Source: a virus (Duplodnaviria; Heunggongvirae; Uroviricota; Caudoviricetes). Taken from it: a stretch of 4,887 nucleotides of DNA. The stretch is taken from IMG/VR virus record IMGVR_UViG_2693429508_000001, positions 1-4,887 of that record. One strand, 5' to 3'. A program made the position numbers and the translations under genes. The notes under the pieces are model-generated. The model was not told where the DNA came from. It did no database searches and saw only the letters and a list, made by a program, of their open reading frames with translations. Numbering within the stretch: the stretch's first letter is position 1; the number at the start of each line of letters is the position of its first letter. Of this stretch, positions 1-4,887 are shown in pieces.

Positions 1-34
1 CCTCAAAAACACCATCATACACTAAATCAGTAAG

Positions 35-63
35 TTGGCAGCATCACCAAAATTGGTTATGCT
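35..63 (+). promoter_or_regulatory. Possible late promoter (pR'-like): TTGGCA, 17-nt spacer, TATGCT, upstream of the lysis cassette
   Basis: -35-like TTGGCA at 35-40 and -10-like TATGCT at 58-63 with a 17-nt spacer, placed where lambdoid phages carry pR'/qut ahead of S. Motif match only; no Q gene is visible in the window. Confidence 0.25.
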
Positions 64-93
64 GTTAAGAGTGGTTACTTCGTCACACAGCTT

Positions 94-126
94 AAACCCG
101 CCGTCGAGCGGGTTTTTCCATTTTTT
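94..126 (+). terminator. Intrinsic terminator hairpin in the late leader (tR'-like)
   Basis: Perfect 8-bp GC-rich stem AAACCCGC (94-101) / GCGGGTTT (108-115) with loop CGTCGA, followed by TT-CCA-TTTTTT (116-126). It lies about 110 bp upstream of the holin start, as expected for a Q-antiterminated late leader. Confidence 0.45.
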
Positions 127-238
127 GAGTCTCGATATTAGCTGATAACCCAATACCTGAGTTATTCACTGACTCCGAGTCTGTTACGTTTCGTAGTATT
201 CCCTCAATTTACACCCGCTTTGTCTGCGAGGTGGGGTT

Positions 239-454
239 ATGAAATCCATGGATAAGTTAACAACGGGTGTCGCCTATGGCACCTCAGCAGGTAGTGCCGG
301 GTACTGGTTTTTACAGCTGCTAGATAAAGTCACGCCCTCACAGTGGGCGGCAATTGGAGTGCTGGGTAGCCTGGTATTTGGCCTGCTGACGTACCTGACA
401 AACCTTTATTTCAAGATTAAAGAAGATAAGCGCAAGGCTGCGAGAGGTGGATAA
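239..454 (+). CDS. S: Class II holin / pinholin (phage 21 S-like) with dual-start motif
   Basis: 71-aa ORF starting MKSMDK (Met1 at 239, Met4 at 248), the dual-start arrangement that gives antiholin and holin in S21-type pinholins. It has a Gly/Ala/Ser-rich first transmembrane segment ([16 protein letters not shown]), a second hydrophobic segment ([18 protein letters not shown]) and a basic C-terminus. GAGGTGGGG Shine-Dalgarno at 225-235. Stop TAA at 452-454 overlaps the next start. Confidence 0.9.
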
Positions 455-951
455 TGCCTCCATCATTACGAAAAGCTGTTGCTGCTGCTATTGGTGGCGG
501 GGCTATTGCTATAGCATCTGTGTTAATCACTGGCCCAGGTGGTAACGATGGTCTGGAAGGTGTGAGACATAATCCTTACAAAGAAATAGTTGGTGTATGG
601 ACTGTATGTTACGGGCATACAGGAAAAGACATCATTCCCGGTAAAACGTATACCGAAGCAGAGTGCAAAGCCCTCCTGAATAAAGACCTTGCCACTGTCG
701 CCAGACAAATTAACCCGTACATCAAAGTCGATATACCGGAAACAACGCGCGGCGCTCTTTACTCGTTCGTCTACAACGTGGGTGCTGGCAATTTCAGAAC
801 ATCGACGCTTCTTCGCAAAATAAACCAGGGTGATATTAAAGGCGCATGTGATCAGCTACGGCGCTGGACATACGCTGGCGGTAATCAATGGAAAGGACTG
901 ATGACTCGCCGTGAGATTGAGCGTGAAGTCTGTTTGTGGGGGAAACAATGA
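454..951 (+). CDS. R: SAR endolysin (T4-lysozyme-like muramidase with N-terminal signal-anchor-release domain; R21 / RrrD-like)
   Basis: 165-aa ORF whose ATG overlaps the holin stop (TAATG). The N-terminus [21 protein letters not shown] is a weakly hydrophobic Gly/Ala-rich SAR segment. It is followed by a lysozyme-like core with Glu35 and Thr50 in the E-8-X-5-T spacing and conserved blocks [18 protein letters not shown] and [10 protein letters not shown]. Classic pinholin plus SAR-endolysin pairing. Confidence 0.9.
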
Positions 952-1406
952 GCAGAGTAACCGCGATTATCTCCGCTCTGGTTATCTGCATCATCGTCCG
1001 CCTGTCATTGGCTGTTAATCATTACCGTGATAACGCAATCGCCTACAAAGAGCAGCGCGATAACAAGGCCAGTGAACTGGAGAAGGCGAACGCCACCATC
1101 GCTGACATGCGGAAGCGTCAACGTGATGTAGCAGAACTCGACGCAAGATACATAAAGGAGCTTGCTGATGCTAACGCGACTATCGAAAGTCTCCGTGCTG
1201 ATGTTTCTGCTGGGCGTAAGCGCCTGCAAGTCGCCGCCACCTGTGCAAAGTCAACGACCGGAGCCAGCGGCATGGGCGATGGAGAAAGCCCAGGACTTAC
1301 AGCAGATGCTGAACTCAATTATTACCGTCTCCGAAGTGGAATCGACAAGATAACCGCGCAGGTTAACTACCTGCAGGAATACATCAGGACGCAATGCCTG
1401 AAATAA
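948..1406 (+). CDS. Rz: Rz i-spanin (inner-membrane spanin subunit)
   Basis: ATG at 948 overlaps the endolysin stop (ATGA at 948-951). The six-frame track's 936 start is a GTG extension and less likely. N-terminal transmembrane segment [14 protein letters not shown], coiled-coil-like charged middle, and a C-terminus LQEYIRTQC resembling lambda Rz. Third position in the lysis cassette. Confidence 0.85.
1168..1353 (+). CDS. Rz1: Rz1 o-spanin lipoprotein, embedded in the +1 frame of Rz
   Basis: ORF wholly inside Rz in another frame. AAGGAG at 1155-1160 sits 7 nt upstream of ATG 1168. Signal peptide [19 protein letters not shown] with lipobox-like VSAC (Cys21), then a proline-rich mature region [16 protein letters not shown] typical of Rz1. 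The track's 1162 start is TTG; ATG 1168 is preferred. Confidence 0.7.
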
Positions 1407-1436
1407 TTTTTTTGCAAATCACAAAGTCCATTTAAT

Positions 1437-1460
1437 GAGCCTCGCGATGCGGGGCTTTTT
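1437..1460 (+). terminator. Intrinsic terminator downstream of Rz
   Basis: Stem GCCTCGC (1439-1445) / GCGGGGC (1449-1455) with one U-G wobble, loop GAT, followed by TTTTT (1456-1460). Begins 31 nt after the Rz stop. Confidence 0.5.
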
Positions 1461-1467
1461 GCAATAA

Positions 1468-1492
1468 ATGCGTACCGCAACGCATGTTTTTT
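1468..1492 (+). terminator. Second tandem intrinsic terminator
   Basis: Perfect 6-bp stem ATGCGT (1468-1473) / ACGCAT (1480-1485), loop ACCGCA, then G plus TTTTTT (1487-1492). Confidence 0.45.
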
Positions 1493-1607
1493 ACACCGAA
1501 CCTGCCCCTTTGGAATGGGCCTTTGAGGATACCAGTTAGTGCTGGCGAGCCTCGGTGGGCTGGTTTCCTGTGCGGCAAAGGTTCATTTCAAAGAGTAGGT
1601 ACACGCT

Positions 1608-2105
1608 ATGAAATCATTAACCCTCTTCAATCAACCAATTCGTATCGGTGAAGATGGCATGATCTGCCTCACTGATATGTGGAAAGCCAGTGGTAAAAGT
1701 GAATCTGAATCGCCTTACCACTACCTGCGAAACAAGCAGACCAAAGAGTTCTTAGCCGAGCTGGAGAAAAACCACGAATCTGTGGTTTTTACTGAGCGCG
1801 GTGTACACGGTGGAACATATGGCGGGAAGTTTGTTGCTTACGATTATGCGGCTTGGTTAAACCCCGGGTTCAAGTACGCGGCCTATAAAGTCCTCGATGA
1901 CTACTTCACCGGAGAACTTCAGCATCGCAACAGCTTAAGTGCGCAGCTCAACATGAAATGTCATGAATTTGACCAGAAGAAAGACATGGCGAGCTTCTGC
2001 GGACAAGGGCTGGCAGCATGGCGCTATACGAAGCCAGTGTTGGTCGCTGAGATTAACTCCCTGGCTAACCAGCTGCAGATTACGATCCCCGGGCTTCCGG
2101 GATGA
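1608..2105 (+). CDS. KilA-N-domain protein (APSES-like DNA-binding fold; putative antirepressor / regulator)
   Basis: 165-aa ORF. The N-terminal 100 residues carry KilA-N-type blocks as I recall the family: MICLTDMWKASGK, YLRNKQTKEFLAEL, GGTYGGKFVAYDYAAWLNPGFKYAAY. The C-terminal 60 aa have no recognisable motif. Weak Shine-Dalgarno (AGAGTAGG). The stop overlaps the next ORF. Confidence 0.65.
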   Translation: MKSLTLFNQPIRIGEDGMICLTDMWKASGKSESESPYHYLRNKQTKEFLAELEKNHESVVFTERGVHGGTYGGKFVAYDYAAWLNPGFKYAAYKVLDDYFTGELQHRNSLSAQLNMKCHEFDQKKDMASFCGQGLAAWRYTKPVLVAEINSLANQLQITIPGLPG

Positions 2106-2359
2106 GTGATCATGTTATTGAATGCGCCTCCAGAGCGGGGCGCGACTTCTCAGAGTTCATGAAAGGCGAGAAGGGCATGATGGAAGCATTGGCCTCGGTG
2201 GATGAGTTTGGCGAGCAGCTGCGCCTCAACGGCTGTGTCAATCATCACTTTGTTAGCTACATGATGCGGAACTCGATCATGCAGGCATTCATGGACATGG
2301 CAAAAGCCGAGAGGAAAGAAGAGCGCCGGCGTAAGCGAGCGGAAGCAAAAGCGAAGTAG
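2102..2359 (+). CDS. Hypothetical 85-aa protein with Lys/Arg-rich C-terminal tail, translationally coupled to the KilA-N gene
   Basis: ATG 2102 overlaps the TGA of the upstream ORF (ATGA). The 85 codons are not interrupted. C-terminus KAERKEERRRKRAEAKAK is strongly basic. No recognisable family; internal Met codons (M20, M26/27) are alternative starts. Confidence 0.45.
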   Translation: MSDHVIECASRAGRDFSEFMKGEKGMMEALASVDEFGEQLRLNGCVNHHFVSYMMRNSIMQAFMDMAKAERKEERRRKRAEAKAK

Positions 2360-2583
2360 CCATTACAAAGCCCATTTACGGGTGGGCTTGATAATGAAAC
2401 CGGAATTTATTCTGGGCCACCAGTTAACGGCAGTACCACGAAACAACCCAAGCCAGTAAGTGGGGAAATAACACCGGCAGCCACTGAAAGATGAACCTCC
2501 TGCCTTATGGCAAAAAAGATTCTTTGTGGTGGCGGACTGATGGAAAGACATCCCAATTTCAGCCAAACATTGAAGGAGTTGTT

Positions 2584-2655
2584 ATGTCAGCAGAAGGTTT
2601 CAATAACCCATCAAAATTCCGGGATGAGTGGGATAGCAGCGTAAAGAGTAAGTGA
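2584..2655 (+). CDS. Candidate micro-ORF (23 aa, MSAEGFNNPSKFRDEWDSSVKSK) with strong Shine-Dalgarno; in-frame upstream ATG at 2491 would give 54 aa
   Basis: Consensus AAGGAG at 2573-2578 sits 5 nt upstream of ATG 2584. The ORF ends at TGA 2653-2655, immediately before the hairpin motif. Below the six-frame track's length cut-off. No homology recognised. Confidence 0.25.
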   Translation: MSAEGFNNPSKFRDEWDSSVKSK

Positions 2656-2656
2656 T

Positions 2657-2784
2657 GCCATCACAAAAGCCATTCCCTACAGAGTGGCTTTGATAATGGC
2701 TTATACCCTACACGGGATAACTTAACTGATATCCCTTTTAAAGGATAAAGGTATTCAAGCCTGACACATCATGCGCTGTATCGT
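2657..2784. repeat. 128-bp segment, copy 1 of a near-identical direct repeat (copy 2 at 3391-3518); begins with a 9-bp-stem hairpin
   Basis: 2657-2784 and 3391-3518 differ at only about 3 positions, all within the hairpin arm and loop. Copy 1 is cut off by the IS2 end at 2785; copy 2 continues into the pre-cos sequence. Confidence 0.9.
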
Positions 2785-3057
2785 TAGACTGGCCCCCTGA
2801 ATCTCCAGACAACCAGTATCACTTAAATAAGTGATAGTCTTAATACTAGTTTTTAGACTAGTCATTGGAGTACAGATGATTGATGTCTTAGGGCCGGAGA
2901 AACGCAGACGGCGTACCACACAGGAAAAGATCGCAATTGTTCAGCAGAGCTTTGAACCGGGGATGACGGTCTCCCTCGTTGCCCGGCAACATGGTGTAGC
3001 AGCCAGCCAGTTATTTCTCTGGCGTAAGCAATACCAGGAAGGAAGTCTTACTGCTGT
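2785..3057 (+). mobile_element. IS2 (IS3 family) left end: terminal inverted repeat plus 5' part of orfA, truncated by the N gap
   Basis: Sequence from 2785, TAGACTGGCCCCCTGAATCTCCAGACAACCAGTATCACTTAAATAAGTGATAGTCTTAATACTAGTTTTTAGACTAGTCATTGGAG, matches the IS2 left terminus as I recall it, followed by the InsC reading frame. Only the left 273 bp of the element are present. Confidence 0.85.
2876..3057 (+). CDS. insC: IS2 transposase OrfA (InsC), N-terminal 60 codons; 3' end lost in the assembly gap
   Basis: Translation [60 protein letters not shown] is the recognisable IS2 InsC N-terminus with its helix-turn-helix. GGAG sits 5 nt upstream of ATG 2876. The track's 2831 start is an artefactual upstream extension. 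Confidence 0.85.
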
Positions 3058-3088
3058 NNNNNNNNNNNNNNNNNNNNNNNNNNNNNNN
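3058..3088. other. Run of 31 N: assembly or scaffold gap
   Basis: 31 consecutive ambiguous bases. Sequence before the gap is IS2; sequence after it is the 3' end of an Rz-like gene. The junction is not biological sequence. Confidence 0.95.
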
Positions 3089-3190
3089 GTTGCTGGACGA
3101 AACGTTCTCGGTATCCGGGACGGAATTATCCGCGACCAAACAGCACTGAGAACGCTTCAGGAATACATCAGGACGCAATGCCTTCGATGA
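3089..3190 (+). pseudogene. 3' fragment (33 codons) of a second, divergent Rz-like spanin gene
   Basis: Translation ends [11 protein letters not shown]-stop against [11 protein letters not shown]-stop for the intact Rz at 948-1406. The last 30 nt are near-identical to 1370-1399, but upstream residues and downstream DNA differ, so this is a different allele or locus copy. Confidence 0.6.
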
Positions 3191-3364
3191 TAGCGATAAT
3201 TTTACTCATCATCCTTCACATCTGGCTCTGTAGACAGGGTGGTGCTCACTTCTGGAGTGAATCCAGATTAAACATCTCATTGCTGATGCTTGATATTGAG
3301 CATTTTGCGCGCGGTAAGGGGCTGCGTTGAGATAAGAGCCAGTCATTACAAATACCAGGATTTA

Positions 3365-3387
3365 GCCTCGCATTCGCGGGGCTTTTT
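3365..3387 (+). terminator. Intrinsic terminator, paralogous to the one at 1437-1460
   Basis: Same stem GCCTCGC (3365-3371) / GCGGGGC (3376-3382) with loop ATTC, followed by TTTTT (3383-3387). Confidence 0.5.
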
Positions 3388-3390
3388 ATT

Positions 3391-3518
3391 GCCATTACAA
3401 AAGCCACTTCCTACAGAGTGGCTTTGATAATGGCTTATACCCTACACGGGATAACTTAACTGATATCCCTTTTAAAGGATAAAGGTATTCAAGCCTGACA
3501 CATCATGCGCTGTATCGT
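3391..3518. repeat. 128-bp segment, copy 2 of the direct repeat; perfect 9-bp hairpin AAAGCCACT / AGTGGCTTT at 3400-3425
   Basis: Near-identical to 2657-2784. Here it continues uninterrupted into the pre-cos segment (CGCCGTATTCCC...). Confidence 0.9.
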
Positions 3519-3812
3519 CGCCGTATTCCCGTATTAACCATGACCGTAGCCCGACGGGGAACTCCTTCTGCGCGAGTGTGCGGGAATAATCAAAAACGAT
3601 GCACACCGGGTTTTTACCGCGTTTATGGTTCGCGGGTTTGTCCCTCATGCTCGCCAGTCCTGTGCGGGGGTGGAAGAAACAGGACACTTACACTGATTCT
3701 TGTGGGTACGATGCTATTCCTTTCTGGATTATCCCGATGTCATTCATGCAGGGCGCTGTATCAGACGTTCGTCATGGCTGTCAGGCTGACGGGTCCTCCC
3801 GGTGGGGTGGCC

Positions 3813-3835
3813 TGCCACGGGGCGGGAGCGGCGCG
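3813..3835. promoter_or_regulatory. Possible degenerate cos-like site, about 185 bp upstream of the terminase small subunit
   Basis: CACGGGGCGGGAGCGGCGCGG resembles the lambda end junction ACG-GGGCGGCGACCT-CGCGG as I recall it, and is followed by an AT-rich stretch with TTCGTCATCAC (3862) and TTCATCACTAAC (3939) elements at a cosB-like distance. The exact GGGCGGCGACCT 12-mer is not present. Confidence 0.25.
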
Positions 3836-4005
3836 GAAAAAGGCTAGTTTTTGAAATTTCATTCGTCATCACCACTACTGTAATGGATTGATATTACAGT
3901 GGTTTTATTTTTATGGTGTCGATTTTGATTGTTTTTTGTTCATCACTAACACCGTTTGCCTAAAGTTGTTCGCAAGATGCATGTTTAAAACATTCTGGAG
4001 CGGGT

Positions 4006-4500
4006 ATGGATCGAGAGTTAAAAAATCTGACGCTGAATATCAGTCAACTGGCGGCACTGTCAGGTGTACATCGCCAGACTGCTGCGGCAAGGCTGCAAAA
4101 TCTACCCGTTGCAGGGGGGCATGAAAGCAACCTCAAGCTTTATCGGGTGGTTGATATTGTGTCGGCATTTCTGGCATTACCACCGCCGGTTGCAGAAGGC
4201 GAAATGGACGCGCATGAGCGCAAAGCCTGGTATCAGTCTGAACGTGAGCGTCTTAAGTTCGAACAGGAAACGGCACAACTCATTCCGGCCAGTGATGTCA
4301 GACGGGAGTTTGCCATCTGGGCAAAAGCGGTCGTGCAGGTGCTGGAGACATTACCGGATATTCTTGAACGTGACTGCGGTCTGCAGCCTGCCGCTGTGAG
4401 CCGTGTTCAGTCCATTATTGATGATCTGCGCGATCAGATAGCCCTGCGGGTGACTGAAGCAGGTGCGGATGATGAGGAGGAATTACAGCAGGAGGAGTAA
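4006..4500 (+). CDS. Terminase small subunit (Nu1-like DNA-packaging protein)
   Basis: 164-aa ORF with GGAG 5 nt upstream of the ATG. N-terminal helix-turn-helix-like LNISQLAALSGVHRQTAAARL and the pattern PVxxGG...Y...V parallel lambda Nu1 residues 5-50. Acidic C-terminus. The stop overlaps the start of a gpA-like ORF (TAATG). Confidence 0.8.
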   Translation: MDRELKNLTLNISQLAALSGVHRQTAAARLQNLPVAGGHESNLKLYRVVDIVSAFLALPPPVAEGEMDAHERKAWYQSERERLKFEQETAQLIPASDVRREFAIWAKAVVQVLETLPDILERDCGLQPAAVSRVQSIIDDLRDQIALRVTEAGADDEEELQQEE

Positions 4501-4865
4501 TGCTGAATCAGGAAACCGCAAAGGCAGCACGAACCGATTCAGGTTATATCCTTCGCGCACCGAGACGAATGCGGGTTGCTGATGCCGTTGCTCAGTATAT
4601 GCGGGTGCCCATGGGGGCAGGGAACTCAGTCCCGTGGGATCCGCTGGTGGCACCGTATGTTATTGAGCCGATGAACTGCCTGGCCTCGCGTGAATACGAC
4701 GCAGTGATATTTGTTGGCCCGGCACGAACCGGCAAGACTATCGGCCTGATTGACGGCTGGGTGATTTACAACGTGATTTGCGATCCTGCTGATATGCTGA
4801 TTATTCAGATGACGGAGGAAAAAGCCCGCGAACACTCCAAAAAACGACTCGCCAGAATGAGGTAG
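4500..4865 (+). pseudogene. Terminase large subunit (gpA family) N-terminal 121 codons, ending at an in-frame TAG
   Basis: Translation aligns by eye with lambda gpA residues about 30-135 (window PYVIEPMNCLA against lambda PFQRAIMNAMG; window VGPARTGKTIGLIDGWVIY against lambda VKSARVGYSKMLLGVYAYF). Intact gpA proteins are about 640 aa. A TAG at 4863-4865 ends the frame, and the frame stays open for the 7 remaining codons before the window edge. Confidence 0.65.
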
Positions 4866-4887
4866 CCTGAGTTTAACGGACACTCCT

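Follow-up and report, generated by a model that had tools for sequence, protein, structure and literature searches.

What occupies the interval between the Rz gene and the terminase genes of a lambdoid prophage, and how might it be expressed? The question is raised by a stretch of 4,887 nucleotides from a virus of the Caudoviricetes (IMG/VR record IMGVR_UViG_2693429508_000001, positions 1 to 4,887; hereafter the window), which is the late region of a lambdoid prophage interrupted by insertion sequences and an assembly gap. Positions 1493 to 2656 carry two overlapping genes, ORF A and ORF B, and an earlier note made from the sequence alone had read them as an uncharacterised cargo module in the Rz-to-cos slot. 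The Bro network, to which we shall refer throughout, is a network of shuffled phage domains that lists ORF11CD3, KilA-N, Rha, P22_AR_N and others (PMC10111431). We find that there is nothing unusual about the protein pair, which belongs to a known, functionally obscure family and is widely annotated, and that the part of the interval that looks new is the RNA leader in front of ORF A. We consider it fairly probable that the interval is a widespread and self-contained late-operon cassette of the Bro network whose translation is gated by this leader. With confidence that falls a little short of even, we also propose that the leader (1489-1611) founds an undescribed class of cis-regulatory RNA, a pseudoknotted switch that sequesters the Shine-Dalgarno (SD) sequence of Bro-network genes, and that ORF B is a new Bro-network domain partnering KilA-N.

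The 115 nt at 1493-1607 had been treated as plain upstream DNA and are instead a conserved structured RNA leader (Table 1). When sequences 5' of the KilA-N genes of divergent phages were aligned, a conserved architecture with compensating differences was observed. Each variant alone folds into the same long interrupted hairpin, the base of which pairs a CCUUU segment (CCUGC in the window) with the SD sequence. These independent single-sequence folds agree with the hairpin of the covariance model, which was built from nine leader variants and matches the window leader over its full length with 55.6 bits (E 3e-13). The stretch 1430-1625, with the two terminator hairpins included, folds at z = -3.8. 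RNAalifold on a plain MAFFT alignment returned just 10 pairs because the variants are misaligned there, and the covariance-model alignment was therefore required. Rfam 15 gave no match at E<=1 to eleven leader copies (that of the window and ten copies in seven other loci).

Covariation was assessed on 37 distinct leader sequences. The alignment was fitted to the model structure, which inflates the pairing figures, and on this basis 94.2% of the leader cells were found in standard pairs compared with the far lower values of 74.5% for shuffled controls and 38-51% for slid partners. Changes on both sides were observed for 30 of the 31 pairs, and the covariation score of 0.512 (0.182 when shuffled) was reached by none of 500 shuffles. 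Helices 1-2, which contain the SD equivalent AAAGG, are paired in 96-99% of the cells and all five of their pairs are doubly changed. A conserved helix that pairs with the SD sequence and is backed by covariation, as is characteristic of SD-sequestering leaders, is thus found here.

In addition to the hairpin, a contiguous complement of 6-8 bp was observed at the same two places in all 37 variants, where it forms a pseudoknot between the 5' flank and the apical loop. The complement occurs in many sequence versions, such as CCCCGAG/CUCGGGG, CGAGAG/CUCUCG, CACAGA/UCUGUG, CGUCGA/UCGACG, CCAAGAG/CUCUUGG and CUCAGAA/UUCUGAG. The pseudoknot cells are paired in 95.8% of cases against 57.6% when shuffled, with scores of 1.04 and 0.27 and all 7 pairs doubly changed; these figures are inflated, as the register was picked per sequence and an artificial spacer served as alignment anchor, and the shuffle is the relevant control. 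The 5' strand of the pseudoknot lies 0-1 nt from the basal helix and sometimes overlaps it by one base, while the 3' strand is remote from it, at the hairpin tip. The two elements are therefore probably alternatives. Furthermore, the G-U pairs and the far weaker minus-strand scores (best match of the covariance model, 34 bits on the minus strand versus 138 bits on the plus strand) suggest an RNA on the + strand.

The leader is found well beyond this prophage. Matches of the covariance model lie on the + strand with E values from 1e-8 to 1e-37 and always end at an ATG, and a full-length leader was observed 5' of every KilA-N gene tested. The leader also precedes P22 rha, a P22_AR_N+ORF11CD3 gene, a B-like T5orf172 gene from a phage of 38% G+C, and others. 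Among 36 distinct proteins encoded directly after a leader, KilA-N was found 15 times, ORF11CD3 11 times, Phage_pRha nine times, T5orf172/MUG113 and P63C three times each, and P22_AR_N, ANT, Bro-N and HNH_3 once each. A single leader variant is carried by 917 of the 5,426 complete E. coli genomes (17%). RefSeq annotates no RNA feature at the sites of this variant, and at its 3' end lists "Rha family transcriptional regulator", "GIY-YIG nuclease family protein" and "KilA-N domain-containing protein". Most leaders come after Rz, LysC or an endolysin, and the others after a tail gene, Q or a further cassette; the cassettes are followed by DUF2560 (P22 orf80), by small terminases of three kinds or by HNH genes. 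A Salmonella prophage (locus L100) holds four cassettes in tandem, and the Rfam family STnc100 scores 70.7 bits, above threshold, just 5' of the first of them (L100:126-345). At a further locus, a short-loop leader (48 bits, L102:4435-4533) lies 5' of a 297-aa gene with a weak Phage_Tail_Tip match, which is among the few leader-associated genes outside the Bro network.

The P22 leader (L092:1532-1648, NC_002371 39531-39647; 52.7 bits) bears on the annotation of its own gene. P22 DNA matches the window up to the ATG (84% identical), beyond which it continues as rha. The GTG annotated as the start of rha (L092:1576) falls within the conserved leader, whereas an ATG at L092:1646 matches the position of the ORF A ATG, and the Rha Pfam domain begins at annotated residue 48. 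Judged from these positions, the annotated start is probably wrong and the first 23 residues of the annotated protein are probably left untranslated. P22 Rha (orf201) and phi80 Rha resemble the window pair in lying directly after Rz/Rz1 behind an upstream terminator and the leader, and in ending with ORF11CD3. By Pfam, P22 Rha consists of Phage_pRha and ORF11CD3, and its N-terminal DNA-binding domain therefore differs from the KilA-N of ORF A. ORF B is also missing from P22. A small gene downstream, orf80, was considered as the counterpart of ORF B and rejected, as it is DUF2560 and shows no similarity. The Rha product harms phage growth in hosts deficient in IHF (PMC4936722); no match to the IHF-site consensus was found in 38-3880.

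A leader shared by such different genes could also be read at the level of DNA. On that reading, the cassette would be a selfish, homing-type mobile element of little benefit to the phage, its leader and linker hairpins serving as recombination or homing targets that spread nuclease-bearing relatives (T5orf172/GIY-YIG, HNH_3) together with nuclease-less derivatives such as ORF A. The leader does precede T5orf172/GIY-YIG and HNH_3 genes, T5orf172 proteins are related to homing endonucleases (PMC8096241), the cassettes occupy at least three genome slots and they form tandem arrays of up to four copies (L100). Mosaic joints were observed to cluster at 1470 (between the two hairpins after Rz), 1535, the ATG (1608) and 2396; that joints fall exactly at 1470, the ATG and the linker hairpins speaks for this reading. 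T5orf172 relatives such as the homing-endonuclease genes of ICP1 and CapR of PLE belong to the same domain-shuffling network, and some T5orf172 genes lie behind the same leader or carry an N-terminal domain homologous to ORF B. However, the genes of the window have no T5orf172 or other nuclease domain by Pfam, and the compensatory changes, which include G-U pairs, and the strand asymmetry show selection on RNA structure and not on DNA homology alone. The coding sequences of ORF A and ORF B are 94-100% identical across many backgrounds, which is compatible with function without proving it. We regard homing as quite unlikely to be the explanation.

The cassette, as we reconstruct it, would begin with one terminator hairpin or two, followed by a leader RNA (about 110 nt) whose long hairpin pairs with the SD sequence and whose apical loop engages the 5' flank in a pseudoknot. 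Next would come a gene of the Bro/KilA-N/Rha domain-shuffling type, here KilA-N plus ORF11CD3, and, in this lineage, the translationally coupled, helical ORF B. Transcription would start at the late promoter, with Q-antiterminated polymerase reading through the terminators and no promoter within the cassette itself. We infer late-operon transcription because no promoter-like site was seen, the pair lies on the late strand (that of S-R-Rz), leader cassettes take late-operon positions and P22 rha is described as a late-operon gene (PMC4936722). Until the hairpin is opened, the leader would prevent translation of ORF A and, as the two genes are coupled by their ATGA overlap, also that of ORF B. 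The basal helix would represent the OFF state, and the pseudoknot is probably its alternative, so that the two would make up an ON/OFF switch; RNase III cleavage or a trans-acting factor might also open the hairpin. The two proteins would then act on DNA during lytic growth as a regulator or antirepressor-like pair and would not serve a conversion or defence function in the lysogen.

The closest precedent for such translational gating is IsrK-orf45-anrP of Salmonella Gifsy-1, where an antirepressor-like gene also lies behind a terminator, read-through of which yields a translationally inactive mRNA, and alternative structures decide on translation (PMC4825925). The two systems are unrelated in sequence and the Rfam isrK family found no match here. 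IsrK depends on a trans-acting short RNA and a coupled upstream ORF of 45 codons, whereas the window leader is a single hairpin with a pseudoknot placed directly on the ribosome-binding site of its own gene.

The earlier note had favoured an independently expressed cargo behind two terminators, with superinfection exclusion or defence among its possible roles. In this form the pair would be a moron, insulated by the terminators, transcribed from the prophage and active in superinfection exclusion or in abortive infection as BstA is. A moron in the sense of Juhala et al. reportedly has its own promoter and terminator and is expressed from the prophage. The terminators are indeed directly upstream of the pair, the Rz-to-terminase slot houses lysogen-expressed genes in other lambdoid phages, and in related phages DUF1398/ybcV genes occupy it. 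Those lysogen-type genes (DUF1398, ylcI) lie on the opposite strand, however, whereas the pair lies on the strand of the late operon, and a simple consensus scan, which is a weak test, found no sigma-70-like site on the + strand of 1400-1607 and hence no sign of a promoter of the pair's own. The ribosome-binding site is sequestered in the conserved hairpin, and the same leader fronts P22 rha, a late-operon gene in the same slot, while other leader cassettes are found behind lysis genes, tail genes or Q, late-operon positions all. The lambda bor gene and other Rz-to-cos morons share the genomic slot with the pair. The bor gene encodes a lipoprotein, lies on the opposite strand and is expressed in lysogens from its own promoter; the window pair, unlike bor, has the late-operon orientation, no promoter signal and a predicted translation-blocking leader.

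As regards defence, BstA is encoded close to the immunity region, with expression in lysogens. This abortive-infection protein of prophage BTP1 shares an N-terminal KilA-N(-like) DNA-binding domain with ORF A (PMC8585504), but it has another C-terminal domain and ORF A, at 165 against 307 aa, is half its length and ends in ORF11CD3, the comparison being with BstA as described. PADLOC-DB v2 offered the candidate model PDC-S22 for the KilA-N part of ORF A only (E 1.2e-8) and, for ORF B, nothing beyond a QatB match at E 0.022, which leaves no established defence model for ORF B and no convincing one for the pair; NCBIfam gave nothing. The defence or moron reading lacks positive support and we hold it to be unlikely.

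The proteins themselves fit the proposed late-operon cassette as members of the Bro network. ORF A had been described as a KilA-N protein with an unassigned C-terminal 60 aa. The first part stands, as KilA-N (PF04383) matches with 57.6 bits against a cut-off of 23.8, while the C-terminus can be assigned to ORF11CD3 (PF10549; 50.5 bits against a cut-off of 25, E 2.4e-13) and is 35% identical to that of P22 Rha. The AlphaFold model (pLDDT 84.5) predicts an alpha/beta KilA-N domain with beta strands at residues 2-6 and 9-13, followed by two long helices (86-130 and 132-156). ORF A belongs to PHROG 129, a "transcriptional regulator", and proteins 100% identical to it are found in phages ECP1 and PhiR49_1_star. 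Members of this family show recombination at the boundary between the domains, with divergent KilA-N parts joined to near-identical ORF11CD3 parts. The antirepressor idea of the earlier note survives in that ORF A belongs to the antirepressor-related Bro network (PHROG 129, ORF11CD3), but not in a strict sense: P22_AR_N/P22_AR_C, ANT and AntA gave no Pfam match in ORF A or ORF B at E<=0.1, and the PHROG matches labelled "anti-repressor" are weak (E 6e-4 and 2e-3). The C-terminal end QLQI(T)IPGL (window 2073-2102) is kept across the family, P22 Rha (..VIPGL) included, and as a sequence it loosely resembles a short linear docking motif.

ORF B is a small helical partner with a tail rich in lysine and arginine. 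Its AlphaFold model is confident (pLDDT 92, three helices). It belongs to PHROG 875, whose function is listed as unknown, and its family is small, with 137 clusters at 90% identity that are all from Enterobacterales and only 21 representative clusters among 1.84 billion proteins. C8 and C45 are invariant and H48 and H49 nearly so (ECASR ... GCVNHH), a pattern that suggests a possible metal-binding site. Distant relatives of ORF B were found as the N-terminal domains of T5orf172/MUG113 (GIY-YIG-like) proteins (hhalign probability 94.6%, E 6.5e-8); one such B-like T5orf172 gene adjoins a KilA-N+P63C gene and another sits between lysis genes and terminase. Since ORF B is linked to KilA-N genes and its relatives are fused to T5orf172, it is, by sequence comparison, a previously unnamed module of the Bro network.

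The pair itself is common. It occurs in 389 of 5,426 complete E. coli genomes (coverage >=80%), and its DNA was found in 231 phage records, including HK620 (hkbK/hkbL), the Stx phages 1717 and 2851, ECP1 and PhiR49_1, where the gene is annotated "KilA-N-ORF11CD3". In the same slot, HK620, HK97 (HK97p60/p61) and the Stx phages 1717 and 2851 carry true orthologues or close paralogues of the pair, which are annotated "KilA-N domain-containing protein" and "hypothetical protein". The label "uncharacterised" therefore does not hold as far as annotation goes; the literature was searched for hkbK/hkbL, ORF11CD3, the protein accessions and KilA combined with covariation, and neither a functional study nor one of an RNA motif was found.

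In a linkage survey of 91 loci, ORF B lies directly 3' of a KilA-N gene in all 91. The neighbouring Rz varies from 54 to 99% identity, the lysis genes vary and the terminase changes in type, so that the earlier expectations of two co-conserved, translationally coupled genes that travel as a unit, and of a discrete accessory module in the Rz-to-terminase slot, are borne out. The C-terminus of the KilA-N partner is either ORF11CD3 or P63C, the latter in HK97, HK022, mEp235 and Klebsiella phages. As partners with P63C also precede ORF B, ORF B is tied to the KilA-N part and not to the C-terminal domain.

The position of the pair immediately 5' of the small terminase region in most loci, and the basic tail of ORF B, which by its composition could bind nucleic acid, might point to a packaging or lysis accessory factor that works with the terminase, as the HNH protein of HK97 does. 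We consider this very improbable. The identical pair accompanies packaging modules of at least four unrelated types (Nu1, DUF1441, HNH-associated and P22-like), the lysis genes beside it vary, and in Klebsiella phages it lies after the tail genes beside an Arc/Arc/Bro-N region, far from the terminase. A sar-like Rfam signal (37.6 bits, below the 43-bit threshold) was observed in that region on the minus strand (L006:4170-4234), and on account of it the region was marked as immI-like.

Several points weigh against a late-operon cassette gated by its leader. Two of them are the inflation of the pairing figures for the hairpin and for the pseudoknot, as given above. The consensus scan leaves room for a weak or non-sigma-70 promoter between terminator and leader. 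For ORF A, the PDB sequence search gave nothing and Foldseek against the PDB gave no match below E 0.79, the value at which its best matches include Mbp1, the APSES prototype (probability 0.16). ORF B has no Pfam family and no PDB fold match (Foldseek, none below E 1.3), in agreement with its first description as a basic-tailed protein without a recognisable fold. Finally, ORF B is not essential to the family, since it is missing beside more distant KilA-N+ORF11CD3 homologues (51-63% identity) in the same Rz-to-terminase slot; one Salmonella locus retains only the first 14 codons of ORF B.

The edges of the cassette are marked by hairpins. The tandem terminator-like hairpins after Rz were located by reading, the second also by a terminator scan. 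The first, GCCTCGC..GCGGGGCTTTTT, is found 5' of nearly all leader variants. The second, GCGCA..TGCGC (window 1468-1485, N5-6 between the arms), is kept between terminator and leader in all variants, with a T-run in some of them only, the window included. Its pairs are nearly invariant and covariation therefore speaks neither for nor against it; it may act as a hairpin in the RNA or, as a palindrome in the DNA, be the binding site of a protein. On the right, the commonest mosaic joint fuses 2396 directly to 2657. A linker hairpin, GCCATTACAAA[A]GCC..GGCTTGATAATG, occurs at 2359-2396, 2657-2694 and 3391-3428, and more weakly at 1415-1433, and marks module boundaries; the first two copies read GCCATTACAAA...GATAATG.

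Between the linkers lies a 155-nt spacer (2397-2552) that is also present, with 92-96% identity, in P22, HK97, HK620 and many prophages downstream of whichever Bro-network gene they carry. It matches no protein family and no Rfam family, and Rfam has no family for 2397-2655 as a whole. No tRNA was found either. The tiny ORF with a strong ribosome-binding site that the earlier note had pointed out is present within the adjoining insertion, preceded by GAAGGAG. This 23-aa ORF is identical in 21 of the 91 loci, so that it offers no variation for a coding test; it matches no protein family and nothing was found showing it to be a gene. An exact 14-nt repeat, TTCCGGGATGAGTG, lies at the A/B junction (2095-2108) and inside the 23-aa ORF (2617-2630). 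By a rough estimate about 0.04 such repeats are expected by chance per window, and it may be a relic of another cassette junction.

The layout of the rest of the window is largely as first described (Table 1). Both reading frames lie where the earlier note had placed them, about 1,164 bp of extra DNA separate the terminators from the repeated segment in the left copy, and that segment measures 129 nt and is 98% identical between its copies. The distance of 200 bp from the Rz stop (3190) to the segment (3390) in the post-gap copy is also correct, but the Rz there is another allele with its own 50-aa ORF. The linker follows directly after the terminator in this copy (3388/3390), which is an empty-site configuration. 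The stretch as an empty copy of the same locus was ruled out, as it is the arrangement of another phage across the N gap and insertion sequence (IS) DNA. The DNA at 3178-3330 was also observed in HK620, between Rz and the cassette. Of 5,426 E. coli genomes, 5,409 match the DNA from 2785 onward, and in one match RefSeq lists an IS3-family transposase; we take this DNA to be an IS2-like left end with the first ORF, and 1-48 to be an IS1-like end. The last 28 nt or so (about 4860-4887) may be another IS end, and so many IS copies point to a Shigella-like genome or that of an IS-rich E. coli.

Table 1. Features of the window and their positions.
Feature	Position	Strand	Remarks
P21-type holin S	239-454		Pfam/ORF reading
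Lysozyme R	454-951		Pfam/ORF reading
Rz with embedded Rz1 frame	948-1406		Pfam/ORF reading
Terminator 1 after Rz (GAGCCTCGC GAT GCGGGGCTTTTT)	1437-1460	+	Cassette begins directly past its T-run
Hairpin 2 (ATGCGTACCGCAACGCAT and T-run)	1468-1492	+	By reading and terminator scan
Conserved structured 5' leader RNA	1489-1611	+	Ends at ORF A ATG; covariance model R1
Pseudoknot strand a5' CACCGA	1494-1499	+	Pairs with 1552-1557
Long interrupted hairpin	1501-1599	+	Per-sequence minimum-free-energy folds and model-aligned pairs
Basal helix	1501-1505/1595-1599	+	CCUGC pairs with GUAGG of the SD region
Pseudoknot strand a3' UCGGUG	1552-1557	+	Apical loop; adjoins small hairpin 1540-1551
SD-like GAGUAGG	1593-1599	+	8 nt 5' of ATG, within basal helix
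ORF A, 165 aa	1608-2105	+	KilA-N (residues 9-101) and ORF11CD3 two-helix hairpin (109-161)
ORF B, 85 aa, three helices, basic tail	2102-2359	+	Coupled to ORF A by ATGA overlap (2102-2105)
Linker hairpin H1 (GCCATTACAAAGCCCATTTACGGGTGGGCTTGATAATG)	2359-2396	+	Right edge of A-B module; repeat family D2
Conserved spacer	2397-2552	+	92-96% identical in P22, HK97 and HK620
103-nt insertion relative to P22, HK97 and HK620	2553-2655	+	Holds 23-aa ORF 2584-2655
129-nt segment	2656-2784	+	Begins with linker hairpin H2; repeat at 3390-3518
IS DNA	2785-3057		Starts right after 129-nt segment
Run of N	3058-3088		
3' end of different Rz allele	After N gap; stop at 3190		
50-aa hydrophobic ORF, phrog_11822 (E 1.8e-36)	3178-3330		Overlaps stop of post-gap Rz allele
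Terminator of post-gap copy	3364-3388		Terminator scan; linker directly follows at 3390
DUF1441 small terminase	4006-4500		Pfam
Large terminase	Downstream of DUF1441 small terminase		Pfam

Bro, KilA-N and Rha proteins are among the commonest phage and prophage genes of obscure role. KilA of P1 is toxic or phage-inhibiting when expressed. The same is often the case for the expressed proteins of this group, as for Rha (PMC4936722) and AnrP (PMC4825925). A shared, covarying leader before otherwise unrelated DNA-binding genes points to one common post-transcriptional control, and gating by the leader would allow the cassettes to reside in a late operon without constant expression. The leader helices offer a direct experimental handle on the control of these genes. 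Furthermore, the leader marks the true start codon of the genes downstream and could serve as a search key for cassettes. As the complete E. coli genomes with the one variant (17%) include many O157:H7 and other Shiga-toxin strains, the leader is also relevant to Stx phages. If the proposal is true, the switch gates KilA-N, Rha, Bro-N, P22_AR_N and T5orf172/GIY-YIG genes in temperate enterobacterial phages, including P22, HK97 and HK620, and the leader would respond to a signal, which may be RNase III, a phage or host protein, a small RNA or a ligand.

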